Shown here one piece after another: positions 22,565 through 48,777 of a DNA stretch of 64,000 nt. The stretch covers positions 1 to 64,000 of the forward strand of contig JBHHXN010000008.1 of assembly GCA_046757025.1 (NCBI GenBank), written 5' to 3'. The DNA is from a bacterium (GTDB taxonomy: Bacteria; Zhuqueibacterota; Zhuqueibacteria; Oceanimicrobiales; Oceanimicrobiaceae). Numbering within the stretch: the first letter of the stretch is position 1; the number at the start of each line of letters is the position of its first letter. Position numbers and translations under genes: made by a program. The notes under the pieces were generated by a model. The model searched no databases and was not told where the DNA came from. It saw only the letters and a list, made by a program, of their open reading frames with translations.

Positions 22565-24772
22565 ATGATTCAATTAAAGAGGAATTTTATTTTATTTTTA
22601 GTTTTTATTGCGGTTTTCACATTTTATTTGACTGCGGTTTCTGCTTCAGAATGGCCCAGTTGGAGGGGCCCGTTTCACAACGGTGTCTCACCTGAAAAAA
22701 ACTTGATTGCGAATTGGTCTTTGGATGGTGAAAACCTGATTTGGAAAGAGCCGTTCAAAGGCCGTTCTACCCCCATCGTGATGAACGGACGGGTTTATGT
22801 CATCGGGCGCACCGGCAAGGGCATAACGGCTCAGCGCGTGGTGGCTTGCTATGATGCCGAAAAGGGCGGAGTGCTCTGGGAGAACCGCAACAATGTTTTT
22901 CATACCACGGTGCCATTTCCTCGTGTCGGTTGGGCCAGTTTGGCTGGTGATCCCGAAACCGGCAACGTTTATGTGCTGGGGGTGGACGGTTTGTTTACCT
23001 GTTATGATCAGGATGGCAAGGTTGTGTGGGAGCACTCCCTGGTGGAAGAGTATTTTCGTTTTTCCGGCTACGGCGGACGCACCAACACGCCCTTTGTGGA
23101 CGAAGAGCTGGTCATCATCAGTCATAACAACAATAGCTGGGGTGAGCAGATGCCCATGCGGCCGCGATTTTTAGGGTATGATAAAAAGACCGGCGAGCTG
23201 GTCTGGGTGACTTCTCTCAAATCACCGCCGAAGAATACCAATTATTCCAATCCCGTGCTGGCGTTGATAAACGGGCAGCGGGCCATGGTAACCGGCGCGC
23301 CGGACGGCGCCATCTACGCCATAAAAGTGCGCACCGGTGAAATTATCTGGAAATTCAGTTTGAGCAAAGGCGCCATCCAAACTTCGGTGGTTGTGGAAGG
23401 AAACCGTGTTTACGCTGCGCATGGCGCTGAAAATTTTGAATCCGTCAGCCGCGGCAGGGTGGTTTGCTTCGATGCCAACGGCCGCGGCGATATCACCAGG
23501 AGCAACGAAATCTGGAGAGTAGACGATCTCATGGTGGGCTACGCCTCGCCGGTTTTGCATGCTGGCCGTTTATACGTAGTGACCGACGCTGGCAATCTGG
23601 TTTGCCTGGATGCAGCCAACGGTGACAAAAAATGGACGTTTAACCTGGGCACCGTGGGTAAGGGTTCGCCGGTGTGGGCAGACAACAAAATATTTGCCAC
23701 CGAAGTCAACGGGCATTTTCACATCATCAAACCGGGAGAAACCTCAGCCAAATCGCTGGATAAAAAGCAGATCGTTTTTGATGAGAAACGGTACGCTGAA
23801 ATTTACGGTTCACCGGCCATCGCCTATGGCAGAATTTATTTTACCACCGAAGAAGGACTCTACTGTCTGGGGAATAAAAACGCAAAGTTTAGCATAGGTA
23901 AGGGACCAGAGATAATAATCGATGAAGAAAAGGCGGACGAAAAGGCTCTACCGTCGGTTATTAAAATCGTACCGGCGGAAATCTGGATCAAAGCCGGCGA
24001 GACAATCCCTTTTAAAGTCCGGGCCTACGATAACCGCGGTCGTTCGCTGGAACCCGTCAAAGCGACTTTTTCACTGCAAAAATTGCCGGGGCGCGTCAAT
24101 GACGACGGGGTGTACGCCACAGACCGCCAGATGAAAAGCACTGCCGGTTATGTGGTGGCCAGAGTGAATAGTTTGGAGTCCAAAGCCCGGGTGCAGGTGA
24201 TGGCGGATTTACCCTTTTCGGAAGATTTTGAATCGTTCGAAGTTGACAAGAATCCACCGTTGTGGCCGGGCGCTGCCAAATTCGTAGTTAAAAAAATTGA
24301 AGGTAACCAAGTCCTGGTGAAACCGCCGGCAGCCAGAAATTTAAAGCGTCATAATTTGTTTCTCGGACCGCCTGATATGAAAAATTATACCATCCAGGCC
24401 GATTTGCTAGGCACGAAAGAAAAGCGGCGTCGACCGGATATGGGCTTGATTGCCAATCGTTACTATCTCGATCTCATGGGCCGGCATCAGCGGCTGCAGG
24501 TTCGTTCCTGGCCGGCTGAGCTGCGCATGATGAAACAGATCGATTTTACATGGCAGCCGTTTGTCTGGTACACTATGAAAATGCGGGTGGACGTAATCGA
24601 CGGCAAGGCCGTCATAAGAGGCAAGGTCTGGCCCAGAGATGAAAAGGAGCCGCACGCCTGGAGCATTATTGTTGAAGACCCAAAACCGAATACGCATGGC
24701 AGTCCCGGTCTTTACGGCGACTCGGTCACAGACATATATTTTGATAATGTTAAAATTACCAGGAGCAAATAA
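22565..24772 (+). CDS. Secreted PQQ-like beta-propeller protein with C-terminal Ig-like and lectin/DUF1080-like domains
   Basis: Signal peptide ASA-SEWPSWRGP; repeated ..D..TG...W propeller motifs; C-terminal FSEDFE...NYTIQAD...WY.MK..V.....IRGKVW...GSPGLYG...YFDNVKIT. Confidence 0.8.
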   Translation: MIQLKRNFILFLVFIAVFTFYLTAVSASEWPSWRGPFHNGVSPEKNLIANWSLDGENLIWKEPFKGRSTPIVMNGRVYVIGRTGKGITAQRVVACYDAEKGGVLWENRNNVFHTTVPFPRVGWASLAGDPETGNVYVLGVDGLFTCYDQDGKVVWEHSLVEEYFRFSGYGGRTNTPFVDEELVIISHNNNSWGEQMPMRPRFLGYDKKTGELVWVTSLKSPPKNTNYSNPVLALINGQRAMVTGAPDGAIYAIKVRTGEIIWKFSLSKGAIQTSVVVEGNRVYAAHGAENFESVSRGRVVCFDANGRGDITRSNEIWRVDDLMVGYASPVLHAGRLYVVTDAGNLVCLDAANGDKKWTFNLGTVGKGSPVWADNKIFATEVNGHFHIIKPGETSAKSLDKKQIVFDEKRYAEIYGSPAIAYGRIYFTTEEGLYCLGNKNAKFSIGKGPEIIIDEEKADEKALPSVIKIVPAEIWIKAGETIPFKVRAYDNRGRSLEPVKATFSLQKLPGRVNDDGVYATDRQMKSTAGYVVARVNSLESKARVQVMADLPFSEDFESFEVDKNPPLWPGAAKFVVKKIEGNQVLVKPPAARNLKRHNLFLGPPDMKNYTIQADLLGTKEKRRRPDMGLIANRYYLDLMGRHQRLQVRSWPAELRMMKQIDFTWQPFVWYTMKMRVDVIDGKAVIRGKVWPRDEKEPHAWSIIVEDPKPNTHGSPGLYGDSVTDIYFDNVKITRSK

Positions 24773-26235: not shown

Positions 26236-26254
26236 CATCATTCGATAGGAGAGT

Positions 26255-26692
26255 GTGTTGATTCCGGAAGAACACTACCGAAAATTAGAGCGACTGTATG
26301 CCTCGGCTCCGATAAATGAATTCTACAAACCGCGGATTCGAATCAGTTGTGCGCAGGCGGAGATATCTGTAAAAATTAAACCGGATTTTTTTCATGCGGC
26401 GCAGGCGGTACACGGATCGGTCTATTTCAAGTCGCTGGACGATTCAGCCTTTTTCGCCGTCAACTCGCTGGTTTTCGATGTGCTCGTGCTGACCGCCTCG
26501 TTCAACATTTATTTGACACACCCGATTTCTGATGGTGAAATGACCGCGGTCGGTAAAGTCGTTCACCAGTCGCGACGGTTGTTCATTGCGGAGTCGGTGC
26601 TTTTTGATTCGAACCGCAAAGAAATCGCCCGCGGCAGCGGGTCATTTATGCGCAGCGCCATTCCGCTTTCTGAGGAGATGGGGTACAAATAA
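26255..26692 (+). CDS. PaaI family hotdog thioesterase
   Basis: HAAQAVHGSVYFKSLDDSAFFAVNS...TASFNIYL..P...IARGSGSF; GGAG RBS. Confidence 0.85.
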   Translation: MLIPEEHYRKLERLYASAPINEFYKPRIRISCAQAEISVKIKPDFFHAAQAVHGSVYFKSLDDSAFFAVNSLVFDVLVLTASFNIYLTHPISDGEMTAVGKVVHQSRRLFIAESVLFDSNRKEIARGSGSFMRSAIPLSEEMGYK

Positions 26693-26739
26693 GCGAATCA
26701 GTTTCGACGAGTTTCAAGCAAAATTAGATTGAAATTTTC

Positions 26740-27813
26740 ATGAATTTGACTTCAAAAATAAAAGCAGCCCGACAGCAGCTGGACGCCCATGTGCGCGAAA
26801 TGGTGCAGTGGCATTTCGACCCGGCTACCGGCTGCCCGTTTTGGCTGGACTTTGCTGCCAGGCTTGATTACGATCCCCGGAAAGAAATCACTGGTTATGA
26901 TGATTTAAAAATTCTCGGGCATTTTGAAGACCGTTGGCTGCGGGGTGGGCCGGTTCGAAAGTGGCTGCCGAAAGCTTTTGCCAAGGAGCCGGTTTACGTG
27001 TTTGAAACCGGCGGCTCCACAGGTGTGCCCAAAACGCGCATCAACATACGGGATTTTCAAACAGATTATGAATTATTCAGCGAGCAGCTTTCGGAAGAGG
27101 GATTTCCCCCGGGTGCAGACTGGCTCATGCTCGGCCCCACCGGACCCCGCAGACTGCGGCTAGCCATCGAGCATCTGGCGCAGCATCGCGGCGGAATCTG
27201 TTTTTTTGTGGATCTGGACCCGCGTTGGGTGAATAAGCTGATCAAACACGCTGAACTCGCGGAGCTGGAACGCTACAAAAACCACGTCATCGATCAGGCG
27301 TTGAATATTTTGAGGGCGCATGACAACATTCGGTGTTTGTTTTCCACCCCCAAGTTACTCGAAGCGCTGTGTGACAAAATCGCTTTACCGAAAATCGGCA
27401 TCAAAGGCATCTTCTGTGGCGGCACCGAAATGAACGCGCAGTTTCACCGATTTGCCCGGGAGGAGCTGGTGCCGGGAATCGAATTTGTGCCCACTTACGG
27501 CAACACCCTGATGGGGCTGGCGGTCAACAAACCGTTTGACCCGGCAGACAATTATGCCATCATCTACTATCCGCCCTTCCCGCGTGCGGTGTTCGAGTTA
27601 GTCAACCCGGACAACCCTGAACAACCGATCGACTATGGCGAAACCGGCCAGGTGATGCTCACCACTTTGACGCGGGAATTTTTCATGCCGCGTTTTTTGG
27701 AGCGGGATGAAGGGGAACGGGCCGAGCCCATCGAGCGATTTCCCTGGGATGGTGTGCGCAACCTGCGATTGCTGTCTTCCCTGCAAGAGTCTGTCGTGGT
27801 GGGGGTTTATTGA
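26740..27813 (+). CDS. EhpF-like ANL-superfamily adenylating enzyme (short, PaaK/LuxE-related)
   Basis: WHFDPATGCPFWL, FETGGSTGVPK P-loop, GPTGP, DLDPRWV, GGTE, YGNT, GETGQV...ERD, C-terminal VVGVY; same motif order as I recall for phenazine-tailoring EhpF. Confidence 0.75.
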   Translation: MNLTSKIKAARQQLDAHVREMVQWHFDPATGCPFWLDFAARLDYDPRKEITGYDDLKILGHFEDRWLRGGPVRKWLPKAFAKEPVYVFETGGSTGVPKTRINIRDFQTDYELFSEQLSEEGFPPGADWLMLGPTGPRRLRLAIEHLAQHRGGICFFVDLDPRWVNKLIKHAELAELERYKNHVIDQALNILRAHDNIRCLFSTPKLLEALCDKIALPKIGIKGIFCGGTEMNAQFHRFAREELVPGIEFVPTYGNTLMGLAVNKPFDPADNYAIIYYPPFPRAVFELVNPDNPEQPIDYGETGQVMLTTLTREFFMPRFLERDEGERAEPIERFPWDGVRNLRLLSSLQESVVVGVY

Positions 27814-29237
27814 TGCAGCATTTCCCCATTTTAAGAGCCGGAAGCGCCTACCGGAGTTTAAACACGCTGACCGTCAAGGATTTCCGAACTGGCGAGGCCA
27901 TTGCCCAATTGAGCCTGGCGAACACGGGCTTGATACGCAACGATTTTTCCGAGGCCGCAAATAACAAGTTAGCTCTCGAGGCCTTGCCCATTGCAGAATT
28001 GCTGAAGATGTGCAAAAACGCCGCCCATCTCTTCCTGCATGAAGAATTACCGGTGGACGAGGCCAGCCAGTCTCCCGACGAGTACGTTCGTTTGCTTTCT
28101 CTGAGCACGGGCATGCCGGAAGGGTTGTGTCGTTTGAATATGGCGAAAATCTACGCCGTGCTAAATGAAATGGAAGCCGTTTTGGGCGGTTTAACCCGTG
28201 GTCTGGATCTGTCGATTTTAGACACCGGCTGGGGCGAGCAAAACACGCGCACTTTGAGTTATCTCTGTCAAACGCGAGCGCTGGGTGCGATTCTGCCCAA
28301 CAATTCTCCGGGCGTGCATTCGCTCTGGCTGCCCAGCATCCCCTTGAAAGTACCGCTTATGATCAAACCCGGCAGCCAGGAACCGTGGACGCCTTTTCGC
28401 ATCATCCAGGCATTTTTGGCAGCAGGGTGTCCGCCACAAGCCTTTGGCTATTATCCGACGGATTACGCCGGCGCCAATGAAATCCTGTTGCGCAGCGAAC
28501 GTTCAATGCTGTTCGGCGGCGTGGCCATGGTAAAAGCCTGGGAAAACGATCCGCGGGTGCAAATTCACGGGCCGGGCTGGAGCAAAATTATTGTTGGCAC
28601 GGATAAGATTGACCGCTGGCAACAATATGAAGATACTATCGTAGATTCTATCTTAATCAACAGCGGCCGCTCGTGTTTAAACGCTTCCAGCGTCTGGACG
28701 CCGGAAAACGGTTATCAAATCGCCGAAAGTCTGGCTCAGCGCTTGTCGCAAGTGCCGGCCAGGGCGCTGGACGATCCGCAGGCACAATTAGCTGCCTTTG
28801 CCAATCCGCTGGCGGCGCGGCGAATTTCCGAGATGATCGACCGCGGTTTGGCGCAGGGTGGCGCTGAAGACTTGACTGCCAGATATCGTGACCACGGCCG
28901 TTTGATAGAAAAGGACGGTTGCACGTTTCTTTTACCCACTCTTGTCTGGTGTGAAAGTGCAGAACATCCCTTAGCCAATACCGAGCTGTTGTTTCCGTTT
29001 GCAAGCGTGGTCGAATATTCAGAGGATACCTTATTTGAGCAAATCGGGCAAACCCTGGTGGCGACGGCTTTGACAGCGGATAGAAAATTTATTCAAAAGC
29101 TGCTGAATTCGCGGAACATCGATCGCTTGAACATCGGCGCGATTCCTACCTGCACGATCAGTTGGGACCAGCCGCACGAGGGCAATTTGTTCGAGCATCT
29201 GTACAAGCAGCGGGCTTTGCAAATGGCAACAGGATAA
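27813..29237 (+). CDS. Aldehyde dehydrogenase-fold protein, acylating/acyl-reductase (EhpG/LuxC-like) type
   Basis: TGATG overlap; LPNNSPG, KPGSQEP, FGG, HGPGWSK in place of ELGG, NSGRSC catalytic Cys, ELLFPF. Confidence 0.75.
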   Translation: MQHFPILRAGSAYRSLNTLTVKDFRTGEAIAQLSLANTGLIRNDFSEAANNKLALEALPIAELLKMCKNAAHLFLHEELPVDEASQSPDEYVRLLSLSTGMPEGLCRLNMAKIYAVLNEMEAVLGGLTRGLDLSILDTGWGEQNTRTLSYLCQTRALGAILPNNSPGVHSLWLPSIPLKVPLMIKPGSQEPWTPFRIIQAFLAAGCPPQAFGYYPTDYAGANEILLRSERSMLFGGVAMVKAWENDPRVQIHGPGWSKIIVGTDKIDRWQQYEDTIVDSILINSGRSCLNASSVWTPENGYQIAESLAQRLSQVPARALDDPQAQLAAFANPLAARRISEMIDRGLAQGGAEDLTARYRDHGRLIEKDGCTFLLPTLVWCESAEHPLANTELLFPFASVVEYSEDTLFEQIGQTLVATALTADRKFIQKLLNSRNIDRLNIGAIPTCTISWDQPHEGNLFEHLYKQRALQMATG

Positions 29238-29266: not shown

Positions 29267-30415
29267 ATGCAGCCCTTCGATTTTCAATCGAGTATTCGGG
29301 TAGTTTACGGCGAGAACACCCTCAACCAGTTGGGTAATCTGTCAAAGGTGCTGGGGGGGGAGCGGGTGTTGATCGTCACCGATGCAGGCATTGTGGCAGC
29401 GGGATTGGTGGAACGCGCTCGGCAGCTTTTGCAGCATGCTGCCATCGATGCGTTTGTATTCGATGGCGTGGAAACGAACCCCACTACCCGGCATGTTGAG
29501 GACGGATTGCAGTTTGCCCGAGAAATCGCACCTATCGATCTGATTATCGGACTGGGTGGGGGCAGCGCCATGGATTGCGCCAAAGGCATCAATTTTCTAT
29601 TGACCAACGGCGGGAAAATGGAAGACTACTGGGGCGTGGACAAAGCCGCGAAACCCATGCTGCCGTCCATCGGCATCCCGACCACCGCGGGGACGGGCAG
29701 CGAAGCGCAATCCTTTGCCCTCATCGCTCAGGAAGAAGGCCATCGCAAAATGGCGTGTGGAGATAAAAAGGCGCGTTTCAAAACGGTCATTCTCGATCCG
29801 GTGTTAATTAGAAGCGTGCCGCAGGAAATCAAAGCCACCGCTGGCATGGACGCGCTGGCACATGCCGTGGAGAGTTTTGTGTGTACTCGAAGCAATGCCG
29901 TCTCCGAGCTGTTCAGCCGGGAAGCCTGGCGTCTGTTGTCAGGCAATTTTGAGAAAATGCTGAAAGAGCCCGAAAATCTTCGGGCGGCCAGCAGGATGCT
30001 GTTGGGGGCGCATTTTGCCGGCATGGCAGTCGAAAACGCCATGCTGGGCGCGGCGCATGCCTGCGCCAATCCGTTAACCGCGCGCTTCGGCATTTCGCAC
30101 GGCATGGCCGTTGGCTTGATGCTGCCGTCTGTTGTGAGATTTAACAGCCAGGTTGTCGAGGGTCGCTACCAAAAATTGATGCAGGCATTGAATGTTTATC
30201 AAACGGCCGCAAGCCGCTCTGCTGAACAGTTAGCTGAAAAATTGGTGGATTTGATGAGAAAATGCAATTGGCCATTGCAGTTAAGCGAGTTGCATATAGC
30301 AGAAACGGATTTGCCGGCGTTAGCAGAGGAGGCGGCGCAGCAATGGACTGCTCAGTTTAACCCACGTCCGCTGTCTCCGAAGGTCTGTTTGGAGCTGTAT
30401 CAAAAAACTTTTTAG
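29267..30415 (+). CDS. Iron-containing alcohol dehydrogenase
   Basis: GGGSAMD, PTTAGTGSE, DALAHAVE, AHA, HG metal ligands; ATG 29267 chosen to avoid overlap with the ALDH gene. Confidence 0.92.
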   Translation: MQPFDFQSSIRVVYGENTLNQLGNLSKVLGGERVLIVTDAGIVAAGLVERARQLLQHAAIDAFVFDGVETNPTTRHVEDGLQFAREIAPIDLIIGLGGGSAMDCAKGINFLLTNGGKMEDYWGVDKAAKPMLPSIGIPTTAGTGSEAQSFALIAQEEGHRKMACGDKKARFKTVILDPVLIRSVPQEIKATAGMDALAHAVESFVCTRSNAVSELFSREAWRLLSGNFEKMLKEPENLRAASRMLLGAHFAGMAVENAMLGAAHACANPLTARFGISHGMAVGLMLPSVVRFNSQVVEGRYQKLMQALNVYQTAASRSAEQLAEKLVDLMRKCNWPLQLSELHIAETDLPALAEEAAQQWTAQFNPRPLSPKVCLELYQKTF

Positions 30416-30461: not shown

Positions 30462-31589
30462 ATGCCCGTAAGGAATCTGACAATCCTTTTTGTATTTTTG
30501 TTAACTTGGGATAATTTCGCGCAGAATCATGCCGATGAATTTAGTGCGTCAAATGCCTGGCGGATGTTTCGCGGCAACCCGCAATCAACCGCGGTAAAAG
30601 CCGGCCGGGTTGCTAATGAGCCGCGCTTACTTTGGACCTTTCAAGCTTCAGACGCCATTGAATCTACCGCGGCTATTTATGCAAACCGCGTCTATTTTGG
30701 TACGCTAGACGGCCATTTTTACGCGGTGGATTTTGCCACCGGCGATTCTGTCTGGAAAAGGACCGTGGAAGATGAAATAAAATCTTCCCCCACCGTTTAT
30801 CGGAATAAAATTTTTTTCGGTGATGAGTTTGGTGAATTTCATGCACTCGATGTCAGAACCGGCGAGCAGGTCTGGAAATTCACCACCGAAGCCGGCATTA
30901 TTTCTTCGGCCAATTTCTGGGAAGATTATGTGCTTTTCGGCAGTTATGATAATTATCTGTACTGCCTGTCTGTGGCCGATGGCGCATTACGGTGGAAGTT
31001 GGAAACCGACGGTTATGTGCACGGTACGCCGGCCATTTACAATAATCAAGTCTGCATTACGGGCTGCGACGGCTATTTACGCGTCATCGAAATTGCCAGC
31101 GGCAAAGAAACAAAGAAAATCGAGCTGGTGGATTACATCGCTTCCAGTCCGGCCATCTATAACGGTCGCGTATATTTTGGAACACATGGCAATCGCGTCC
31201 TGTGTGTGAATTTGAAAAGTTCTCAAATCGAATGGGTTTATGAACACCCGGTGCGAAAATTTCCCTATTATGCTTCTGCCGCCGTGAACGCAGAGGTAGT
31301 GCTTATCGGCGGCGGCGATAAAATTTTGCACGCGCTTGATCCGAAATCCGGCAAAGAAAAATGGGCATTTCAGGCTCGATCGAAATTCGAAGCTTCGCCA
31401 ATCATTGTCGGTGAGAGGGCCATTACGGCAACCGTTCGCGGGGTGATTTACCTGTTTGACATCCACAGCGGCAGCGTGCTTTGGGAGTATGAAACCGGCA
31501 CAGCCATCGCTTCCTCCCCGGCTTTTGCCAAGGGCAAATTTGTCATCGGTTCGGATGACGGCATTTTATATTGTTTTGGAAAAAAATAA
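30462..31589 (+). CDS. PQQ-like (BamB/AfsK-like) beta-propeller protein
   Basis: Signal peptide; WRMFRGN; about eight S.PAIY...VYFG..DG..YA.D..TG..W repeats. Confidence 0.85.
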   Translation: MPVRNLTILFVFLLTWDNFAQNHADEFSASNAWRMFRGNPQSTAVKAGRVANEPRLLWTFQASDAIESTAAIYANRVYFGTLDGHFYAVDFATGDSVWKRTVEDEIKSSPTVYRNKIFFGDEFGEFHALDVRTGEQVWKFTTEAGIISSANFWEDYVLFGSYDNYLYCLSVADGALRWKLETDGYVHGTPAIYNNQVCITGCDGYLRVIEIASGKETKKIELVDYIASSPAIYNGRVYFGTHGNRVLCVNLKSSQIEWVYEHPVRKFPYYASAAVNAEVVLIGGGDKILHALDPKSGKEKWAFQARSKFEASPIIVGERAITATVRGVIYLFDIHSGSVLWEYETGTAIASSPAFAKGKFVIGSDDGILYCFGKK

Positions 31590-31597: not shown

Positions 31598-32947
31598 ATG
31601 GCAGACCACACCCTTACGCAATTTGCTGAACCTGCGACCACCCGACTCGATGTCAAAGAGACCGAAGCCGGCAGCGTGTTCGTTTCGAATTACCCGCCCT
31701 ATTCGTTCTGGAGCGCTGTGCAGGTTCCGGATGCATTCGCTGCGTTGAATTCTGCTCCAGAACCCACGAACACCCTGGGCCTGTATTTGCACATTCCCTT
31801 TTGTCGCAAGCGGTGTAAATTCTGCTATTTTCGGGTTTATACCGACAAAAACAGCTCACAAATTGCGGAGTACCTGGAGGCTTTGTCCAGGGAAGTGCAA
31901 TTGTATGCTGAGAAACCAGCAGTGGCGGGACGACCCCTGAAATTCGTTTATTTCGGCGGCGGTACCCCCTCCTTCATCAGCGTGAAACATTTGCAACACC
32001 TGGTAACCCGGCTCAAGGCCAGTTTGTCCTGGGATGGCGTGGAAGAGGTCACCTTTGAATGCGAGCCGGGCACGCTTTCGCAGGCCAAATTAGAGGCTAT
32101 TCGGGAAATCGGCGTCACCCGGTTGAGTTTGGGAATCGAAAACTTTCATGACGCTATTTTAAAGGAAAATGGCCGGGCGCATCTTTCCAGAGAAATTTAT
32201 CAGGTGCTGCCCTGGATTCAAGATTTACAATTTCAACAATTGAATGTCGATTTGATCGCTGGTATGGTAGGTGAAACCTGGCACACCTGGAAAGAGAACG
32301 TGCAAAGAACCATCGACATCGATGCCGACAGCGTGACTATTTATCAGTTAGAGCTGCCGTTCAACACCGTTTACACCAGAGAGTTGAGCACCGGTAGCAA
32401 CAAAATTGTGGTGGCGGATTGGCAGACCAAACGAGAGTGGCATGATTACGCCATCGAAGAACTCAGTGCGGCTGGATATGAAATTTCCAGCGCGTACACC
32501 ATGGTTAAAGACAATCACTCCTGTAAGTTTGTTTACCGAGATTCGGTTTGGCGGGGAACCGATATGCTCGGCGCCGGCGTGGCCTCTTTTTCACATATTA
32601 GCGGCGTGCACTACCAAAATGCCGCGGCCTGGCACGATTATCTGGCAAAACTGCAATCGAATAACTTGCCGCTGCATCGAGCCTTTACCGCCACTGCCGA
32701 ACAACAATTGACACGTGAGATGATTTTACAGTTAAAACTGGGCAAAATAAAGACGAAATATTTTAAAGAGAAGTTTAATACCGACATATTAAAAAAGTTT
32801 GAGCGGCCTTTGCAAAAACTACAACAGGAGGGGTTGTTGAGCTGCAAACAGAATGAGGTTCGTCTGACCCGTAGCGGCTTGCTGCGAGTGGATCAGCTTT
32901 TGCCGGAATTTTATTCTGAATCATTTCGAAACGCCCGTTATACCTGA
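31598..32947 (+). CDS. HemN-like radical SAM protein (class C methyltransferase-like)
   Basis: NYPPY, LYLHIPFCRKRCKFCYF, YFGGGTPS, RLSLG, DLI.G; HemN_C tail LTRSG. Confidence 0.85.
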   Translation: MADHTLTQFAEPATTRLDVKETEAGSVFVSNYPPYSFWSAVQVPDAFAALNSAPEPTNTLGLYLHIPFCRKRCKFCYFRVYTDKNSSQIAEYLEALSREVQLYAEKPAVAGRPLKFVYFGGGTPSFISVKHLQHLVTRLKASLSWDGVEEVTFECEPGTLSQAKLEAIREIGVTRLSLGIENFHDAILKENGRAHLSREIYQVLPWIQDLQFQQLNVDLIAGMVGETWHTWKENVQRTIDIDADSVTIYQLELPFNTVYTRELSTGSNKIVVADWQTKREWHDYAIEELSAAGYEISSAYTMVKDNHSCKFVYRDSVWRGTDMLGAGVASFSHISGVHYQNAAAWHDYLAKLQSNNLPLHRAFTATAEQQLTREMILQLKLGKIKTKYFKEKFNTDILKKFERPLQKLQQEGLLSCKQNEVRLTRSGLLRVDQLLPEFYSESFRNARYT

Positions 32948-38310: not shown

Positions 38311-39573
38311 ATGAACAAGCCTAACACAAATTTAATCCCTAATTTGACTTCAGGACCCACCGACGTCGTCGTCATCGGCGGCGGTCCGGCCGGCGCCACC
38401 GTGGCTGCACTGGTGGCTGAGAAAGGTCACCGGGTGCAGTTGTTTGAGCGGGAGATTTTCCCAAGATTCAGCATCGGCGAGTCGCTCATGCCTGGCACCT
38501 ACTGGACCCTTAAGAAGCTGGGCGTGCTGGAAAAAATGAAAAGCAGCGCTTTTCCGCAAAAATGCAGCGTTCAATTTTATTCGCGTTCGGGTCGAGCTTC
38601 GGCGCCCTTTTACTTTTTTGAAAATGATTCACACGAAAGCTCCCAAACCTGGCAGGTGCTGCGCAGCGAGTTTGATGAGATGATGCTGGAGAATGCCCGG
38701 GAAAAAGGTGCTCAGGTGCATCAGGGAGTCAGTGTGACAGAGGTGTTGTTTGAAGAATCGAAAGCGACGGGCGTACGTGTGCGCTTGCCGGATAAAAGCT
38801 TGTACGATATTCAATCCAAAATTGTAGTGGATGCCTCCGGTCAGAGCACGTTGATTGCGCGGAAACTGGACCTCAAGCGGCGCGAACCGGCATTGAAAAA
38901 AGCCGCAGTGTTCAGCCATTTTAAAGGCAGCGTTCGCGACACTGGGGTGGATGAAGGCGCCACCCTCATTTTTCAAACGCAAAATCAGGATTCGTGGTTC
39001 TGGTTCATTCCCCTGCCTCAAGACCTGACGAGTGTGGGCGTCGTGGGCGATGTCGATTATCTGCTCGGGCAAGCTCTGGAAGATCTACAAAACATTTTCA
39101 AACGTGAGCTGGAAATCTGCCCGGCGTTGCAGCCGAGATTGGCGCCGGCCCGGCAGTTATTTCCGATGAAGATCACCCGAGACTTTTCCTATCGCAGTGA
39201 GCAGATCGCCGGCCAAGGCTGGGTGCTGGTGGGCGATGCTTTTGGATTTTTGGATCCCATCTATTCTTCCGGCGTTTTTTTAGCGTTGAAATCAGCGGAA
39301 TTCGCCGCGGCCTGCGTTCATGAAGCGCTAAAAAATCAAGACTTTTCTGCGCCGCAACTGGGGAAATTTCAGAGTGAGTATCTGGCCGGCATGGAGTCCA
39401 TTCGGAAGCTGGTGTACACATTTTATGCGCGGGATTTTAGCTTCGGGCGCTTTCTCAATAAACATCCCGAATGCAGAAAAGACATCATCAATATTTTGGT
39501 GGGCAACGTGTTCAGGGAACCCGTCATTGGGCTGTTTGAACGATTAGGAGAATTCTGCCAGATTCCTGAATAG
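38311..39573 (+). CDS. Flavin-dependent halogenase-like FAD oxidoreductase
   Basis: VIGGGPAG, FPRFSIGES, FPQK (putative catalytic Lys), R.EFD, DASG, WFWFIP, GDAFGFLDPIYSSGV. Confidence 0.8.
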   Translation: MNKPNTNLIPNLTSGPTDVVVIGGGPAGATVAALVAEKGHRVQLFEREIFPRFSIGESLMPGTYWTLKKLGVLEKMKSSAFPQKCSVQFYSRSGRASAPFYFFENDSHESSQTWQVLRSEFDEMMLENAREKGAQVHQGVSVTEVLFEESKATGVRVRLPDKSLYDIQSKIVVDASGQSTLIARKLDLKRREPALKKAAVFSHFKGSVRDTGVDEGATLIFQTQNQDSWFWFIPLPQDLTSVGVVGDVDYLLGQALEDLQNIFKRELEICPALQPRLAPARQLFPMKITRDFSYRSEQIAGQGWVLVGDAFGFLDPIYSSGVFLALKSAEFAAACVHEALKNQDFSAPQLGKFQSEYLAGMESIRKLVYTFYARDFSFGRFLNKHPECRKDIINILVGNVFREPVIGLFERLGEFCQIPE

Positions 39574-39906: not shown

Positions 39907-40137
39907 GTGAAAAAAGCCTTTCCAAAATGGAGCTTGTTTCTAGCCCTTTTTGTTTTGTATCTGCTCCACAACGATCTCTGGTTCTGGCACAATGCCGATT
40001 TGGTTTTCGGCATTCCCATCGGATTGTTTTACCACATTGTTTACTGCGCCGCAGCTTCCCTCATGATGATTCTGTTGGTCAAATATGCCTGGCCCCATCC
40101 TTCCCAAACTAAAGACAAAAAGGAAATACTGAGATGA
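39907..40137 (+). CDS. Small 2-TM partner of SSS symporter (DUF3311/DUF997-like)
   Basis: GAGGAG RBS + GTG; LLHNDLWFW...VFG.PIGL.YH..Y...WP; ATGA overlap with symporter. Confidence 0.75.
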   Translation: MKKAFPKWSLFLALFVLYLLHNDLWFWHNADLVFGIPIGLFYHIVYCAAASLMMILLVKYAWPHPSQTKDKKEILR

Positions 40138-41763: not shown

Positions 41764-43053
41764 ATGAGAATCGCCTACATCTCTGCTGGCGCCGGCGGAA
41801 TGTACTGCGGAAGCTGCATTCACGACAACACGCTGGCGGCCGCATTACAGCAGAAAGGGCACCAGGTGGCTTTGATTCCCACCTACACGCCGCTTCGCAC
41901 CGACGAGACCAACGTCAGTTTGGGCCGCGTTTTTTATGGCGGTTTGAACGTGTATTTGCAGGAGAAGTTTAAAATATTTCGCCGTACCCCGTGGCGGGTT
42001 GACGATTTTTTAAATCAAACGTTTTTGTTGAAATGGATATCCAAACTGGGTTCGTCCACCAATGCCCGCGACTTAGGCACTTTAACGGTTTCGGTGTTAA
42101 AGGGCGAGCACGGGCATCAAAAAAAAGAGCTGGCAAAATTGGTCACCTGGCTTAAAAACGACTATCAACCCGATCTGGTTCAGCTCACCAATTCCATGTT
42201 TTTGGGTATGGCGCGCGAGATCAAACGACAATTGCAGGTGCCGGTGCTCTGTGCTGTTCAGGGGGAAGATCTCTTTTTGGAGGATTTGATCGAGCCGTAC
42301 CAAGAAGAGGCGCGGCTGCTGCTGCAGGAAAAAGCGCAGAACGTCGATGCCTTTATCGCCACCAGCGATTACTATGCCGGCTTCATGGCTGAATTTTTAA
42401 GCGTGCAAAAACAGAAAATGCACACCGTGAAACTGGGCATTAATTTGGATGGTTTGGAAAACGGCCGTATCAACGTGCAAAGCGATTCTTTCATCGTCGG
42501 CTACCTGGCGCGGATTTGTCCGGAAAAAGGTCTGCACTTGCTCGTTCAGGCCTGCTATCGGTTGTGGGAAAAGCTCGGTCGCGACAAAATTCAGCTTAAA
42601 GTGGCGGGCTATTTGTCAAAAAGAGACGGTCTTTATTTTAATGATATTAAAAAACAAATCGCTGAAAGAGGATTCGGCGGTTCATTTGAATATGTGGGCG
42701 AGGTGGATCGTTTGAGTAAAATCATTTTTCTCAGCTCACTGCATGTGTTGTCGGTACCCACTACATATCAAGAGGCCAAAGGATTGTTTGTACTGGAAGC
42801 GCTGGCCAACGGCGTGCCGGTAGTGCAACCGCGACACGGTTCTTTTCCAGAGATCGTGGCGGCCACCGGCGGCGGGATTCTGGTGGCTCCCCACTCGCCG
42901 CACTCTTTAGCCCACGGCATTCTGCAGCTTCTGGAAGATGCTGATCTGAGAAAAAAGTTAGGGCAAAAGGGCCAAGCGGCCGTTCAAAAATCCTTCAGCT
43001 CGCAGGCCATGGCAGAAGCCACGCTGAAAGTTTATGAAAAGTATGTTAAATAA
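41764..43053 (+). CDS. Glycosyltransferase family 4 (GT-B) with N-terminal CxxC motif
   Basis: GYLARICPEKGL, E.KGL.VLEALA.GVPVV, G.FPEIV; N-terminal GAGGMYCGSCIHD. Confidence 0.88.
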   Translation: MRIAYISAGAGGMYCGSCIHDNTLAAALQQKGHQVALIPTYTPLRTDETNVSLGRVFYGGLNVYLQEKFKIFRRTPWRVDDFLNQTFLLKWISKLGSSTNARDLGTLTVSVLKGEHGHQKKELAKLVTWLKNDYQPDLVQLTNSMFLGMAREIKRQLQVPVLCAVQGEDLFLEDLIEPYQEEARLLLQEKAQNVDAFIATSDYYAGFMAEFLSVQKQKMHTVKLGINLDGLENGRINVQSDSFIVGYLARICPEKGLHLLVQACYRLWEKLGRDKIQLKVAGYLSKRDGLYFNDIKKQIAERGFGGSFEYVGEVDRLSKIIFLSSLHVLSVPTTYQEAKGLFVLEALANGVPVVQPRHGSFPEIVAATGGGILVAPHSPHSLAHGILQLLEDADLRKKLGQKGQAAVQKSFSSQAMAEATLKVYEKYVK

Positions 43054-43070
43054 TGTTTTCATTCTCATTT

Positions 43071-43512
43071 GCTCAAGTTTTGCAGTTAGAATTTAAACAA
43101 AATCAAATAAGATCCGGCCGATGAATTTGTATTTCAGCAATTACTATGAAAGAGAGATTACCTTACTATTCCAAAATTGGAGTGATTGAGTCGTTATTTA
43201 CATATTCTAACATTTCTCCTTAACGCAGAGCCGAGGACGCAGAGAATAATATATCTCTCTGCGAAACGCTCTGCGCTTTCCGCGGCCTCCGCGTTGAAAA
43301 AAAAGTGGTTATTTGATAATCCTGTGTTCAGTGGTAAAGCGCCTTTTTTATCGTAAATCAAAAAGTCGATTTTAAGATGACTTTTGCAATAACTGGCTAC
43401 ATACTCATATTTTGGAATTTTTGTGACTAAAGTTATTATAAAGAATTCTGTGAATTCAGTTTGAGTAAAACACCTTAAAAACAATTGATTACACAACTGC
43501 GAAACTTGAGTC
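43071..43512. mobile_element. MITE-like element family A, copy 2 (inverted relative to copy 1)
   Basis: TIRs GCTCAAGTTTTGCAG / CTGCGAAACTTGAGTC; reverse complement matches 16861-17290 throughout. Confidence 0.75.
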
Positions 43513-43550
43513 AATTATTACCTGGGTGAATCCTGAAGGAAGAGCAAAAT

Positions 43551-44117: not shown

Positions 44118-44123
44118 CACGTA

Positions 44124-44555
44124 ATGACAAACATGAAAAGTGATTTTCGTACCAAACGAAAAATTGAATTTGCCGACACCGACCTGGCAGGCATTGTGCA
44201 TTTCGCTCGTTTTTTTGTGTTTATGGAGACGGCGGAGCACGAATTCCTGCACTCACTGGGAACCAGCGTTTCCACGCAATTGAACGGCGACCAAATCGGC
44301 TGGCCGCGACTGGCGGCTTCCTGCGAATATCTGAGCCCGGCTACCTTCGAAGAAGAAATCGATATTTACCTGACGGTTTACAGGAAGGGCAACAAATCCT
44401 TGACTTACAAATTCCTGTTCACGCGCGATGAAAAAATCATTGCCCGCGGACAGATGACTTCGGCCTGCTGCGTTTGCAATCCCGGTGAAAAAATCAAAGC
44501 CATTCCCATCCCCGATTTTATTGCAGATAAAATATCAGAGACTTCAAAAGAGTAG
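44124..44555 (+). CDS. Acyl-CoA thioesterase (4HBT/YbgC family)
   Basis: FADTDLAGIVHFA.FF.FME.AE, C.YLSP..FEE. Confidence 0.88.
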   Translation: MTNMKSDFRTKRKIEFADTDLAGIVHFARFFVFMETAEHEFLHSLGTSVSTQLNGDQIGWPRLAASCEYLSPATFEEEIDIYLTVYRKGNKSLTYKFLFTRDEKIIARGQMTSACCVCNPGEKIKAIPIPDFIADKISETSKE

Positions 44556-44689
44556 AAAATCATTATGCAGTTGGTTTAACTGAGATTTCGACTGGCTCGG
44601 TTCAAAAAGCCATTCTAACAACCACTAAGATATTTGAAACCAATATTAATCGGCCAAAATCTTTTCAATAAATTTAAATCGCAAACATT

Positions 44690-45379
44690 ATGAAAAAGTC
44701 AAACGCCGTATCGCTGCAATTAAAAGAGGTGTATAAAAACTACGGCGCCGAATCCCGGTCGGTACCCGTGCTGCGGGGCGTTTCTTTCGAAATATCGGAA
44801 GGTCAAGCCCTGGTGATCACCGGGCCTTCAGGTTGCGGTAAAAGCACATTGCTGCACCTCATCGGCACGTTAGATACTCCCTCCTCCGGTCAAATCCACA
44901 TAGCCGGTCAGGACCCCTTTACCTTTTCTGAGGTCGATTTAGCCAAATTTCGCAACCAAAACATCGGCTTCGTCTTTCAGGATCATCACCTCTTGCCGCA
45001 GTACTCTGTGTTGGAAAACGTGCTTTTACCCACGCTGGCTTTCAAGAAATCGAACGGCGAATCTTTGCGGCGCGCACAAGATTTTCTATCGCGAGTGGGA
45101 CTATCGGATCGCCTCGAGCACCGACCGGCCGAGCTTTCCGGCGGGGAAAAACAGCGGGTGGCCATCGCGCGAGCTTTGATCAACCAGCCCCAAATCGTAC
45201 TATGTGACGAGCCCACCGGCAATCTGGATCGCCAAACCGCCGGAAACGTAGCGGATCTGTTTTTTGAGCTGCATAAGCAGGAAAAAAACATTCTCATCGT
45301 GGTCACCCACAGCCTCGAGCTCGCTGCCCGCTTCAACCGACGTTTTGAATTGCAGGAGGGAAAATGCGTCGCAGTTTAG
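44690..45379 (+). CDS. ABC transporter ATP-binding protein (LolD/MacB-like)
   Basis: GPSGCGKS, IGFVFQ, LSGGE.QRVAIARAL, DEPTGNLD, VTH. Confidence 0.95.
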   Translation: MKKSNAVSLQLKEVYKNYGAESRSVPVLRGVSFEISEGQALVITGPSGCGKSTLLHLIGTLDTPSSGQIHIAGQDPFTFSEVDLAKFRNQNIGFVFQDHHLLPQYSVLENVLLPTLAFKKSNGESLRRAQDFLSRVGLSDRLEHRPAELSGGEKQRVAIARALINQPQIVLCDEPTGNLDRQTAGNVADLFFELHKQEKNILIVVTHSLELAARFNRRFELQEGKCVAV

Positions 45380-48300
45380 CCTACTACTGGCGTCTCAATC
45401 TGGCGGTGGTTTTGGCGGCGGCGGTTGCCACTGCGGTTTTGACCGGCGCCCTGTTGGTGGGCGATTCGGTACGCGGAAGTCTGCGCGATTTAACGCTGGC
45501 CCGTCTGGGCGAAATCGACTATGTTCTGGTGCGACAAAAGTTTCTTCGGGAAGACCTCCTGTTGGATTTAATTCAATCGGTGGGCTTCGAAAAGCAATTT
45601 GACGCCATCGCCTCGGCCATCTTTTTGAACGGGAACGCTTTGCATACTCAATCCCGGGCGCGAGCTTCAAACGTCAATCTTCTGGCCATCGACGAACAAT
45701 TTTTGACTTTTTACGCATCGGATTCAATTTTGACTCACCTTTCTGCTGGCTTAAAAAAATCGGCAGGCCAAAATATGCCTTCCATCGTCATTAACCGGTC
45801 ACTGCAAAAAGAGCTACAGGCAAAACCCGGCGATCATTTACTGATTTCTTTTCCCCGTCCCAGCACCGTTGCCCGCGGCTCGTTGATGGGTCGGAAACAC
45901 ACAGATGAGGTGGTGGAAACCGTGCGGGTGATTATAACGCGCGTACTGCCGGATCGCGGAGTCGCTCGATTCGGCTTGCACCCACATCAGACCATGCCGC
46001 TCAACGCGTTTATTTCGCTGCCGGTCTTGCAGACCATTTTGCCCCGGCAAGACGAGGTAAACGCCCTGTTGCTGTCTCAGCGATCAAATACGACAGAAAG
46101 CGACCTGTCTGCCGCTTTGCAGCATCATCTGAGCTCCGCTCTCACGCTGGATGATCTCGATTTAAAGATGACCGAGCAGGAGACCTTTTTGCTGCTGGAG
46201 AGTCGGGAGTCCCTGCTGGCGCCGCCCCTGGAGGAATTAATTGCGACGGTGGCGGAAGATATTGCCGCGCCGGTTCTGCCCATCTTGACCTATCTGGCCA
46301 ATTCCATGCGTGTCCGCGAGCGGCGGCTGCCGTATTCAACCGTGTCCGCCCTGCAGGTTTCCGAAATCCCCGCGTTTGGTGAATGGACCCTTGTCAACGG
46401 AAAGCCGGTGACGGAGCTTTCAGATGACGAGATTTTGCTGAATGAATGGGCGGCCCACGATTTGCGCGCTCAGCCCGGTGACAAAATCCATATACAGTAT
46501 TATGAAGTGGGGCCCGCGGATCAATTGATTACCAATCAGGCCACTTTCAATTTGAAGGGGATCGTGGCATTAAAAGGCTTTGCAGTAGATTCCACGCTGA
46601 CGCCGGACTACCCCGGCATTTCCGATACCGACGACATGACGGAATGGGATCCGCCCTTTGCCATCGATTTGAATTTGATTCGACCCGTGGATGAGGCCTA
46701 CTGGGACCATTATCGCGCCATTCCCAAAGCGTTTATTCCGGCTGCTACCGGCGAAAAATTGTGGGGCAGCCGATTTGGCAAGGTGACTTCCATGCGCATC
46801 GCACCGGCAGAGAGCCTGGATGTGGTTGAAACCCGAGCTGTTTTCGAGAAGCGGCTGTTGGAAACGGTTCGACCCGAACAATTCGATTATGTGTTCCAGC
46901 CGGTGAAAAAACAGGGCCTGGCGTCCTCTGCCGGCGCCACCGATTTCAGCGGGCTTTTTTTCGGCTTTAGTTTGTTTTTAATCGTCTCGGCCGCCCTGCT
47001 GGTGGGTTTAATGTTTCGTCTGGGGGTGGAACGGCGGGTGCGTGAAATCGGTACTCTTCTGTCGGTGGGGTTTTCTGTGAAAATGGTCCGGAAACAATTT
47101 TTACTGGAAGGAGCTATTCTGGCGGCAACCGGAGCCGTTCTGGGACTTGGTGGAGCGGTTTTTTACGCCGGCTTGCTCATGCACGGTTTGCGTACCTGGT
47201 GGCTGTCGGCCATTGGCGCGCCTTTTCTGTTTTTGCACGTTCAGATTTTGAGCCTGGCACTGGGAGCGAGCATTTCATTAACGGTTAATCTGGTTGCCAT
47301 CTGGTTGAGTTTTCGCAAACTAAGCAAAGTGCCGCCACCGGCCTTGCTGGCAGGGGTGACGACGGAGGAGAGATTTTCGCCAGCCCGGCGCTGGACAAAA
47401 ATGATCTCTCTGGTCAACTTGATACTGTCGGTGAGTTTGACAGTGGCTGCCTTTTTCGTGGACGCGTCGGCTGCCACCGGCTTGTTTTTTGGCGCCGGCG
47501 CCATTCTGCTGATTGCCAGCCTGTCCTATTTTTCGATCTGGCTCAGAAGCCCGCATTCGACTGTGGGATGGAATACGGGTCGAGCGCCGATGGTACGCCT
47601 GTCCTTTCGAAACACACATAGAAATCCGGGACGCAGCCTGCTGAGTGCGGCGCTGGTTGCCAGCGCGTGTTTTGTCATCGTGGCGGTGGAAGCGTTTCGT
47701 CTGGACTTTGACCAGGAAGTACTGCAGAAAGATTCCGGCGCGGGGGGCTTTACGCTGGCGGCGAAGGCAGACGTGCCCCTGCATCACGATTTGAGTACGG
47801 CAACAGGGCGATTCGAGCTGGGATTCAGCGATGAGGAATCGCAGTATTTGCAGCGTTCACACATTTACGCCTGCCGCTATCTGCCTGGTGACGACGCGAG
47901 TTGCTTGAATCTGTATCGTGTGGAAAAACCGCGGTTGCTCGGCGTGCCGGACGAGTTCATTCAACGCGGCGGCTTTCGTTTTCAGGCTCTGGCGTCATCG
48001 CCAAACGACGAGCAAAATAATCCCTGGCAGCTTCTGAATAGGGAAATCGCACCCGATGTGATTCCGGCTTTTGGCGATTACAATTCCGTGAAATGGATTT
48101 TGCACTCTGGTTTAGGAAAGGACTTGATTTTGACCGATGAACTGGGAAGCAAGATTAAACTGCGATTTATGGGCCTGTTACAAAAAAGCATTTTTCAGAG
48201 CGAGCTACTCATTTCTGAAAATTTATTTTTAAAGCACTTCCCGAATCAAAGCGGCTATGCGTATTTTTTAATGGAAACTCCTCCTTCGGAATCCGATAAG

Positions 48301-48777
48301 TGTGCGCAAATTTTGGAAAAAAATCTAACCGATTACGGTTTCGACATCACGTCCACCGCTGATAAATTGGCCAATTTTCAGGCGGTGGAAAACACCTACC
48401 TTTCCACGTTTCAAACCCTCGGCGGCCTGGGCTTGCTGCTGGGAACTTTGGGTCTGGGATTGATTCTCATCCGCAACGTGGTGGAACGTCGGGGCGAGCT
48501 GGCGACCCTGCGAGCGTTCGGCTATCGCCACCGGACGCTGGCTTTCATGGTGCTCGCTGAAAACGGTTTCCTGCTCATCCTGGGAATCGGCATGGGAACC
48601 TTTTCCGCCGTGATTGCGGTGTTGCCCCACATCTGGAGCCGCGCTTCGCAGGTGCCCTATCTTTCTCTTGCGATCATCCTGATAGCGGTTTTTAGCGTGG
48701 GCATGTTGGCCAGCCTGGGAGCGGTGCGCGCGGCGTTAAAAATCCCACTGCTCCCTGCTTTGAAAGTGGAAGGGTAG
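45364..48777 (+). CDS. Large FtsX/MacB-like ABC permease (two permease halves)
   Basis: Overlaps ATPase 3' end; ERRVREIGTL...G and ERRGELATLRAFG FtsX motifs; large periplasmic domains. Confidence 0.88.
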   Translation: MRRSLAYYWRLNLAVVLAAAVATAVLTGALLVGDSVRGSLRDLTLARLGEIDYVLVRQKFLREDLLLDLIQSVGFEKQFDAIASAIFLNGNALHTQSRARASNVNLLAIDEQFLTFYASDSILTHLSAGLKKSAGQNMPSIVINRSLQKELQAKPGDHLLISFPRPSTVARGSLMGRKHTDEVVETVRVIITRVLPDRGVARFGLHPHQTMPLNAFISLPVLQTILPRQDEVNALLLSQRSNTTESDLSAALQHHLSSALTLDDLDLKMTEQETFLLLESRESLLAPPLEELIATVAEDIAAPVLPILTYLANSMRVRERRLPYSTVSALQVSEIPAFGEWTLVNGKPVTELSDDEILLNEWAAHDLRAQPGDKIHIQYYEVGPADQLITNQATFNLKGIVALKGFAVDSTLTPDYPGISDTDDMTEWDPPFAIDLNLIRPVDEAYWDHYRAIPKAFIPAATGEKLWGSRFGKVTSMRIAPAESLDVVETRAVFEKRLLETVRPEQFDYVFQPVKKQGLASSAGATDFSGLFFGFSLFLIVSAALLVGLMFRLGVERRVREIGTLLSVGFSVKMVRKQFLLEGAILAATGAVLGLGGAVFYAGLLMHGLRTWWLSAIGAPFLFLHVQILSLALGASISLTVNLVAIWLSFRKLSKVPPPALLAGVTTEERFSPARRWTKMISLVNLILSVSLTVAAFFVDASAATGLFFGAGAILLIASLSYFSIWLRSPHSTVGWNTGRAPMVRLSFRNTHRNPGRSLLSAALVASACFVIVAVEAFRLDFDQEVLQKDSGAGGFTLAAKADVPLHHDLSTATGRFELGFSDEESQYLQRSHIYACRYLPGDDASCLNLYRVEKPRLLGVPDEFIQRGGFRFQALASSPNDEQNNPWQLLNREIAPDVIPAFGDYNSVKWILHSGLGKDLILTDELGSKIKLRFMGLLQKSIFQSELLISENLFLKHFPNQSGYAYFLMETPPSESDKCAQILEKNLTDYGFDITSTADKLANFQAVENTYLSTFQTLGGLGLLLGTLGLGLILIRNVVERRGELATLRAFGYRHRTLAFMVLAENGFLLILGIGMGTFSAVIAVLPHIWSRASQVPYLSLAIILIAVFSVGMLASLGAVRAALKIPLLPALKVEG

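Follow-up and report, generated by a model that had tools for sequence, protein, structure and literature searches.

A GT4-ABC transporter chassis associated with WPxWRG propellers in a 19-gene bacterial cluster, and its two alternative modules

What is the function of a gene cluster that combines five β-propellers resembling pyrroloquinoline quinone (PQQ) enzymes with tailoring enzymes for aromatic acids? The question is raised by positions 22565-48777 of a 64,000-nucleotide stretch, called the window here, of contig JBHHXN010000008.1 (assembly GCA_046757025.1) from a member of the Oceanimicrobiaceae in the phylum Zhuqueibacterota. An original prediction read the cluster as one pathway in which an aromatic acid is imported, tailored, glycosylated and exported, possibly as a ligand or cofactor for the propellers. 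The present analysis divides the cluster into parts. Propeller P3, a CxxC-bearing glycosyltransferase of family GT4, an ATP-binding cassette (ABC) ATPase and a 1137-aa permease form a chassis that tracks the propeller motif WPxWRG. Tailoring module A, consisting of an EhpF/EhpG-type reductase, an iron-containing alcohol dehydrogenase (Fe-ADH), a HemN-like enzyme, a halogenase and a symporter, is optional to the chassis. While each enzyme family was already known, the architecture of one chassis with alternative modules is new.

The chassis and the propeller motif

Whole genomes of two phyla were profiled, 251 from Acidobacteriota and 113 from the phylum of the window. A completeness of 90% was requested for both sets, although the values were not reported. 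The unpublished genomes G073, G098, G195 and G408 were counted; G098, G195 and G408 are carriers, and dropping all four alters no conclusion. The propeller marker was a DNA pattern for W-P-x-[W/F]-R-G-P-x-x-[N/D]-G. A looser motif, WPxWRGP, was clean in low-GC relatives but gave out-of-frame matches in GC-rich Acidobacteriota (158/251), and the longer pattern was used. Reversed-pattern controls generated 2 hits in the 251 Acidobacteriota and none in the 113 own-phylum genomes.

Among the Acidobacteriota, 67 genomes contained EhpF, in two of them as a divergent form (33% and 38%), while 72 contained the motif and 70 the permease. Motif and permease occurred together in 69 genomes, the motif alone in 3, the permease alone in 1 and neither in 178. 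The three motif-only matches have Cys or Leu at the Trp/Phe position. EhpF and the permease were found together in 66 of the 67 EhpF carriers. In the window's own phylum the corresponding numbers were 23 for EhpF, 39 for the motif and 46 for the permease, with motif and permease together in 38 genomes, the motif alone in 1, the permease alone in 8 and neither in 66. The permease was present in 21/23 EhpF carriers, and EhpF in 2/67 genomes that lack the permease. Relatives are not independent, so Fisher values overstate the co-occurrence.

Co-inheritance of the tailoring enzymes with WPxWRG propellers had been anticipated, and EhpF was indeed accompanied by the motif in 66/67 Acidobacteriota and 22/23 own-phylum carriers. 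The propellers are nevertheless not tied to the tailoring enzymes. The motif was retained in 17/90 own-phylum genomes without EhpF, and all 17 keep the permease. Thus the propellers follow the GT4-ABC-permease chassis, and the idea that the 19 genes form a single obligatory linear pathway had to be given up. An orthologue of the cluster's TonB-dependent receptor (TBDR) was found in 28/113 own-phylum genomes, every one with the permease; it occurs in 20/21 permease genomes with EhpF versus 8/25 without. The databases label the chassis-associated propellers merely 'PQQ-binding-like' or 'BamB'. The genes of the cluster are as follows.

22565..24772, +, P1, WPSWRG propeller with a C-terminal Ig-like and lectin-like part; goes with the tailoring module, absent from the EhpF-less locus L158/L159
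24772..26235, +, P2, the most conserved propeller, BamB/quinoprotein-type fold; predicted enzyme (structure model pLDDT 92, invariant residues)
26255..26692, +, PaaI-type thioesterase; lineage-specific passenger
26740..27813, +, EhpF/GriC-type adenylating enzyme (EhpF); module A (PDB 3l2k, E 6e-46)
27813..29237, +, EhpG/GriD-type reductase of the aldehyde dehydrogenase (ALDH) fold, Cys in GRSCLN, no ELGG; module A
29267..30415, +, Fe-ADH; module A
30462..31589, +, P3, ACSF4-type propeller with invariant GCD; chassis, found in A and B loci
31598..32947, +, HemN-like (class C type) radical S-adenosylmethionine (SAM) enzyme, CxxxCxxC intact; module A
33011..34339, +, P4, WPQWRG propeller, 44% identity to P5
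34460..35743, +, P5, WPQWRG propeller
36116..38290, +, TBDR of the siderophore-receptor class; chassis accessory
38311..39573, +, flavin-dependent halogenase of the PltA/CndH/Bmp2 type; module A
39907..40137, +, small DUF3311 symporter partner, 76 aa
40134..41651, +, sodium:solute symporter (SSS); module A, no orthologue in 5/5 EhpF-less permease genomes
41764..43053, +, GT4 of GT-B fold with an invariant N-terminal CxxC; chassis, fused to the ATPase in L142
43551..44117, +, 188-aa membrane protein with five hydrophobic segments, no family match
44124..44555, +, 4HBT/YbgC-type thioesterase
44690..45379, +, LolD/MacB-type ABC ATPase; chassis
45364..48777, +, 1137-aa double-FtsX (type VII) permease with ten hydrophobic segments, two large periplasmic parts and an invariant SC-NL; chassis marker

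Modules A and B

Permease loci without EhpF keep P3-GT4-ATPase-permease, with upstream propellers, an NHL protein and the genes of a second module, B, including a membrane-anchored propeller. Module B consists of a NuoE-NuoF fusion, a 2Fe-2S/GltD-like flavoprotein, a NapH-like membrane protein, a twin-arginine-type ferredoxin and its own propellers. The NapH/MauN-like protein scored far below the cut-off of the NapH model. Several type B P3 N-termini resemble lipoprotein signals.

Module A and the iron-sulfur module B nearly alternate. Of the 46 own-phylum permease genomes, 17 have A only, 23 have B only, 4 have both and 2 have neither, so that 44/46 have A or B. Module B was present in 23/25 EhpF-less permease genomes. 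Its ferredoxin marker was identified in 27/113 own-phylum genomes, and the permease in 27/27 of these. Where both modules occur, module B is located away from the chassis. The B arrangement was also seen in one Acidobacteriota genome, G136.

The 95% complete genome G332 contains the locus P2-PaaI-P3-P5-TBDR-GT4-4HBT-ATPase-permease, with a chassis 52-81% identical to that of the window. The locus lacks P1, EhpF, the ALDH-fold reductase, Fe-ADH, the HemN-like enzyme, halogenase, symporter and the five-segment gene, and no EhpF, HemN or symporter orthologue was found in the genome. G332 was considered as a 'scavenger-only' genome, which was ruled out when module B was found on another contig. 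In a tree of 35 GT4 sequences a single clade (100/100) unites 13 B sequences, while those of G332 and G236 are placed within A. The N-terminal CxxC of GT4 is invariant in both types. In three genomes (L178, L180 and L182) the free-standing B module has a NifS-like class V pyridoxal phosphate (PLP) gene behind it, and another class V PLP gene lies within the G332 chassis (L158:13215-14444).

Conservation and protein-level evidence

The 19 co-oriented genes proved real. All are on the + strand and fill 93% of the interval, as 18 open reading frames (ORFs) of 143-1137 aa plus the 76-aa DUF3311 partner. The start-stop couplings that had been read were also confirmed, with TAATG joining P1 and P2, TGATG joining EhpF and the ALDH-fold reductase, and ATGA joining the small partner and the symporter. 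The ATPase and permease ORFs overlap by 16 nt. Gaps of 333-497 bp precede the TBDR, the DUF3311 partner and the 188-aa gene, so one transcript for all 19 genes remains a prediction only. A promoter and terminator scan of the cluster gave matches at chance level, and the expression look-up listed no RNA dataset as carrying cluster DNA. Cluster DNA does occur in hydrothermal vent metagenomes from one study. Its nearest named relatives are KSB1-type genomes.

Searches of Pfam, NCBIfam and PDB agreed with the labels first given to EhpF, the ALDH fold, Fe-ADH, the HemN-like enzyme, the halogenase family, GT4, the two hotdog thioesterases, TBDR, SSS and ABC genes. The five exported propellers stood as five PQQ_2/BamB-type propellers by family search, while their export is predicted from N-terminal sequence only. 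The 188-aa protein lost its 'DMT-like' label, as it belongs to no Pfam family (best E 0.12; no Pfam match for two homologues). The PaaI gene kept its family, but its membership in the cluster is weak, with only two other fetched loci having it (L151 and L159). As had been noticed, a core synthase is missing: Pfam and NCBIfam scans identified no polyketide synthase, nonribosomal peptide synthetase, acyl carrier protein, cyclase or phz domain among the 19 genes. The eight intergenic gaps contained no convincing precursor ORF. Rfam scans of the cluster and 7 loci identified no metal riboswitch or TBDR-substrate riboswitch.

Conservation was examined with EhpF: the genome collection yielded 569 pattern matches, of which 519 were related stretches. 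The 80 best of the 519 were 71-84% identical and came from KSB1, Calditrichia, Poribacteria, Latescibacterota, Acidobacteriota, Gemmatimonadota and one Polyangiaceae genome. Neighbours with at least 40% identity were counted in the 51 of those 80 with full 10-kb flanks, a limit that undercounts distal genes. The ALDH-fold reductase was found in 48, P2 in 45, P1 in 44, Fe-ADH in 39, P3 in 28, the HemN-like enzyme in 27, P5 in 14, TBDR in 11 and the halogenase in 10. The EhpF gene neighbourhood is not due to chance, and the expected synteny in other genomes was borne out. In five Acidobacteriota carriers the genes are scattered over several chromosomal places, with orthologues of P2, the HemN-like enzyme, halogenase and GT4 in 5/5. 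Most carriers have one copy of EhpF, and its identity across phyla is 59-86%. In locus L103 (G257:C4) GT4 is flanked by two EhpF paralogues (67% and 59%), and EhpF/EhpG-type genes occur on the haloarchaeal plasmids NZ_CP119993.1 and NC_014299.1. Two clusters contain tandem propellers of ~800 aa (L151:14025-18932 and L174:1578-8970), one shown fused to an esterase domain, which suggests diverse client enzymes.

EhpF lies directly 5' of the ALDH-fold reductase, the arrangement of a two-protein carboxylate reductase. Searches with either protein lead to the same neighbouring genes, paired in phenazine and aryl-reductase loci of plasmids, at about 36% and 27% identity. Aldehyde dehydrogenases use a catalytic Cys and a general base in the ELGG motif. 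The reductase has GRSCLN at 286 and HGPGWSK at 253 and no ELGG; the catalytic Cys is kept. ATP/NAD(P)H-dependent reduction of an aryl acid by the pair is predicted, and the proposed reduction and tailoring module was upheld at the level of sequence. Adjacent adenylating and ALDH-fold genes are also found in EhpF/EhpG of the D-alanylgriseoluteic acid cluster (PDB 3l2k, 3hgu) and GriC/GriD of grixazone; unlike those, the pair in the window belongs to a separate, highly conserved clade tied to the permease and propellers. GriC and GriD are reported to adenylate and reduce 3-amino-4-hydroxybenzoate, converting an aryl acid to an aldehyde (PMC10179220), and EhpF-O is described as converting phenazine dicarboxylate (PMC3175449). 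No PhzA/B was found in 5 carrier genomes (0/5, control silent), and no phz core gene is among the 19. GriH-type dehydroquinate synthase II was likewise found in 0/5 carriers (control positive in 3/14).

Catalytic motifs are intact in the ALDH-fold reductase, HemN-like enzyme, halogenase, GT4 and ATPase. Flavin-dependent halogenases are recognized by GxGxxG, a catalytic Lys, WxWxIP and Fx.Px.SxG. These are present at 23, 84, 229 and 313, and the Lys aligns with that of PltA. PltA-type enzymes are the nearest relatives; QhpG/LodB hydroxylase models also match, below cut-off, and halogenation is the predicted reaction. The HemN-like protein has CxxxCxxC and the HemN C-terminal domain and scored below the cut-offs for HemN, HemW and HutW. 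A second HemN-like protein of the same subfamily (40%) lies outside any cluster at G000:C67:9503-10843. In GT4 enzymes the donor motifs are R-x4-K and E-x7-E. Both are intact in the GT4 of the cluster (R250-x4-K and E337-x7-E), whose GT-B fold is nearest MshA. Another pair of symporter and GT4 lies on G000:C330 (2954 bp, GC 0.44), with 72% and 68% identity to those of the window; it is either a paralogue or contamination. A natural fusion of GT4 and ABC ATPase lies directly before the permease at L142:10069-12126, while an ADH-P3 fusion suspected from long ORFs was ruled out, as no two-domain match was obtained. LolD was the best ATPase model, but the score was below cut-off and the system is thus not LolCDE itself; the FtsX permease has the large periplasmic parts of type VII.

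The P2 model (pLDDT 92) is a BamB/quinoprotein-type propeller without a close solved relative. Its invariant His/Asp/Glu/Cys residues include H204, H230, H264, H345 and C140, and both P2 and a B propeller, PBa, have many invariant His/Cys/Arg/Tyr residues. The propellers scored at most 136 bits against TIGR03300 (BamB, cut-off 285) and at most 89 bits against TIGR03075 (PQQ-dependent dehydrogenase, cut-off 480). They match TIGR04528 'acido-empty-quinoprotein' weakly, and all quinoprotein models were far below cut-off. Further invariant cysteines are found in GT4 (CxxC), P3 (GCD), the permease (SC-NL) and the NHL protein (GCCNP).

A lead to the substrate came from carriers that add a 186-194-aa gene and a PaaK-like ligase. 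The 186-194-aa protein is nearest to Rv2949c/chorismate-lyase clusters (score 0.96; only a minority of members carry the family assignment), and some of its homologues are called chorismate-pyruvate lyase by JGI. No match was obtained against PDB, and the name rests on Atlas and JGI labels. In the 251 Acidobacteriota the chorismate-lyase-like gene was identified in 22/67 EhpF carriers, G098 among them, and 0/184 others. This restriction to carriers points to 4-hydroxybenzoate. The gene is linked to system genes in 7 fetched loci and unlinked in several others. It adjoins the halogenase or HemN-like gene in L146, L153, L187, L193 and L195, and the PaaK-like ligase in L189 and L190. Import of the acid, as originally proposed, is possible via the symporter but need not occur in all carriers, because a third of those in Acidobacteriota have this gene.

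The cluster is flanked by a divergent tmRNA on one side (21471-21832, -, tag ADNYAYAMAA, 730 bp upstream) and a convergent operon on the other (49105-54336, -; class V PLP enzyme, sodium-dependent transporter and TonB receptor), which has no visible relation to the cluster. An origin as a tmRNA island was unsupported: the cluster sits on the 5' side of the tmRNA, and GC is 0.50 vs 0.47. A MarR regulator is followed at 18947-20840 (+) by a QueG/reductive-dehalogenase-like Fe-S protein fused to an SCP2 domain, which deserves attention near a halogenase cluster. A B12-binding radical SAM protein with DUF4070 lies at 13182-14840 (+) between two SpoIIE-type phosphatase genes. At 54588-59629 (+) there are SspB, SspC and SspD-like phosphorothioation defence genes in lower-GC DNA, then two small ORFs and two unassigned genes.

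A proposed function and its rivals

Our tentative preference, held at less than even confidence, is that the system supplies a redox-active aromatic, derived from hydroxybenzoate, to exported propellers as ligand or cofactor. Gene content, synteny, intact motifs, co-distribution and the near-alternation of A and B are established; the chemistry that we infer would run as follows. The acid would come from chorismate lyase, or from symporter import where that gene is missing, as in the window's genome. It would be activated as a thioester, halogenated on the ring and then released by the 4HBT thioesterase. EhpF and its ALDH-fold partner would convert acid to aldehyde, and Fe-ADH would convert aldehyde to benzylic alcohol. 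The HemN-like enzyme may methylate or otherwise modify the ring. GT4, coupled to the ATPase, would attach a sugar, and the permease would pass the product to P3 and other propellers. Module B would join this chassis as another client or input, probably for anaerobic conditions, and this suggests that the propellers do redox chemistry. A wider form of this proposal is possible, if somewhat doubtful. It would be a widespread, so far undescribed periplasmic redox system, in which one GT4-ABC chassis matures PQQ-less propeller enzymes and accepts interchangeable feeds, either a new halogenated hydroxybenzoate-derived cofactor or mediator (A) or a NADH-to-periplasm iron-sulfur wire (B).

PQQ and mycofactocin are small redox cofactors that serve many dehydrogenases, and the present propellers share the quinoprotein fold of the PQQ system. 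The intergenic gaps contain no candidate precursor peptide; PqqC was found in 0/5 carriers (control silent). A literature search found no characterisation of the cluster and, as had been supposed, no match to a characterised pathway; MIBiG and MetaCyc were not searched directly.

Several observations weigh against the preferred cofactor reading. The most serious of these comes from the B-only genomes, which employ the same GT4 in the absence of module A and, for the most part, of both importers. There are 23 such genomes in the window's phylum, with chassis and module B but no EhpF, and the invariant N-terminal residues of GT4 are preserved in them. Because EhpF-less permease genomes mostly lack the symporter (no orthologue in the 5/5 tested) and the TBDR (8/25 have one), scavenging of an A-made product is not evident. 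Glycosylation of the tailored acid by GT4, part of the original prediction, cannot hold universally unless such genomes do scavenge it. An aerobic/anaerobic split of A and B is backed solely by one oxidase motif in the window's genome. In structure the P2 model resembles BamB, which is not an enzyme, more closely than it does quinoproteins (TMq about 0.65 for BamB). By blastp, neither a chorismate-lyase-like nor a PaaK orthologue was found in the window's genome, so the acid there would be imported or made otherwise. With 1-10 WPxWRG motifs per genome, the numbers are low and could in part come from the system's own dispersed propellers rather than from a wider client family. The genomes compared are related and represent two phyla, with Planctomycetota and Bacteroidota outside the sample.

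The alternation of the modules would be best accounted for by an electron shuttle, which we consider unlikely overall. In this case A does the job of B through a diffusible aromatic, and the chassis matures propellers by other means. The acid would be reduced in the cytoplasm (ATP, NAD(P)H), leave via the five-segment protein, be oxidised at P1/P2 and return via the symporter. Both modules are reductive by family, B was always accompanied by the permease (27/27), and G332 combines an A-type chassis and GT4 with a locus that lacks P1, the A enzymes, symporter and five-segment gene while B lies elsewhere. The near-exclusion may however merely mirror oxygen preference or descent, and the halogenase and radical SAM steps would make sense only if they served to tune the mediator. 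It is rather unlikely that the product is a secondary metabolite or metallophore, a halogenated aromatic secreted and retaken via the TBDR with a regulatory or historical link to propellers. The siderophore-class TBDR of the A genomes fits, as does a planctomycete, Planctomycetales strain 10988, that produces 3,5-dibromo-p-anisic acid, a dibrominated hydroxybenzoate derivative. In its BaaA/BaaB locus (10.1101/723874) a chorismate-lyase-like gene adjoins a flavin halogenase gene, an arrangement shared with L146, L153, L193 and L195. The available text of that paper contains no genetic proof and mentions no reductase, GT4, ABC or propellers; compared by description only, the baa locus may be a fragment of the present system. 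Sponge-symbiont 'Halo_AMP' clusters, mined as biosynthetic gene clusters (BGCs) for secreted brominated compounds, combine a halogenase and PaaK-like ligase with frequent PQQ-like domains, TonB-dependent transporters, radical SAM enzymes and thioesterases (10.64898/2026.08.03.742642). They occur in Acidobacteriota, Latescibacterota and Poribacteria and none grouped with MIBiG; the focal cluster has P450s, and the available part of the report describes no chassis or B module (10.64898/2026.08.03.742642). Their overlap with the present system is likely, judged again from descriptions only. Against a metabolite, EhpF is conserved and mostly single-copy and stays with the permease even when unlinked, which is more like housekeeping than a patchy BGC, and the cluster has no chelator-assembling enzyme.

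Two further explanations take the chassis as their starting point, and both seem improbable. One is envelope biogenesis, with a LolCDE-like chassis that makes and extracts a glycolipid or other glycoconjugate; the propellers would act as scaffolds in the manner of BamB, and A would provide an alcohol acceptor. LolD as best, though sub-threshold, ATPase model, the BamB-like fold of P2 and the lipoprotein-like N-termini of type B P3 agree with this. The many invariant residues of P2 and PBa are unlike a scaffold, and this reading accounts neither for the Fe-S wire nor for the clues to an aromatic, namely chorismate lyase, the PaaK-like ligase and the PltA-type halogenase. The other, quite unlikely and drawn by analogy, is that the chassis is an ATP-driven machine that would insert metal or clusters into propeller metalloenzymes. 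NosDFY with NosGH, and NapGH, comprise an ABC machine and Fe-S membrane relay serving a periplasmic propeller. Module B has a comparable NapH/NosH- or MauN-like partner, invariant cysteines recur in GT4, P3, the permease and the NHL protein, P2 has four conserved His, and class V PLP genes lie beside some loci. Unlike NosDFY, a type VII permease and GT4 replace NosD/Y, and no NosZ or NapA was found in the fetched loci. GT4 moreover keeps its sugar-nucleotide motifs, the Rfam scans identified no metal riboswitch, and module A would have a role only as the source of a metallophore.

If the cofactor reading is true, the system would differ from PQQ and mycofactocin in two new features, loading driven by ATP and an aromatic source that is not a peptide. 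It also offers an alternative origin for planctomycete halogenated hydroxybenzoates and the sponge 'Halo_AMP' clusters. The chassis is present in about a quarter of the sampled Acidobacteriota (70/251) and in 46/113 genomes of the window's phylum. The profile gives their propellers a dedicated partner machine and a chemical lead, 4-hydroxybenzoate with a halogen isotope pattern, which makes their function testable.

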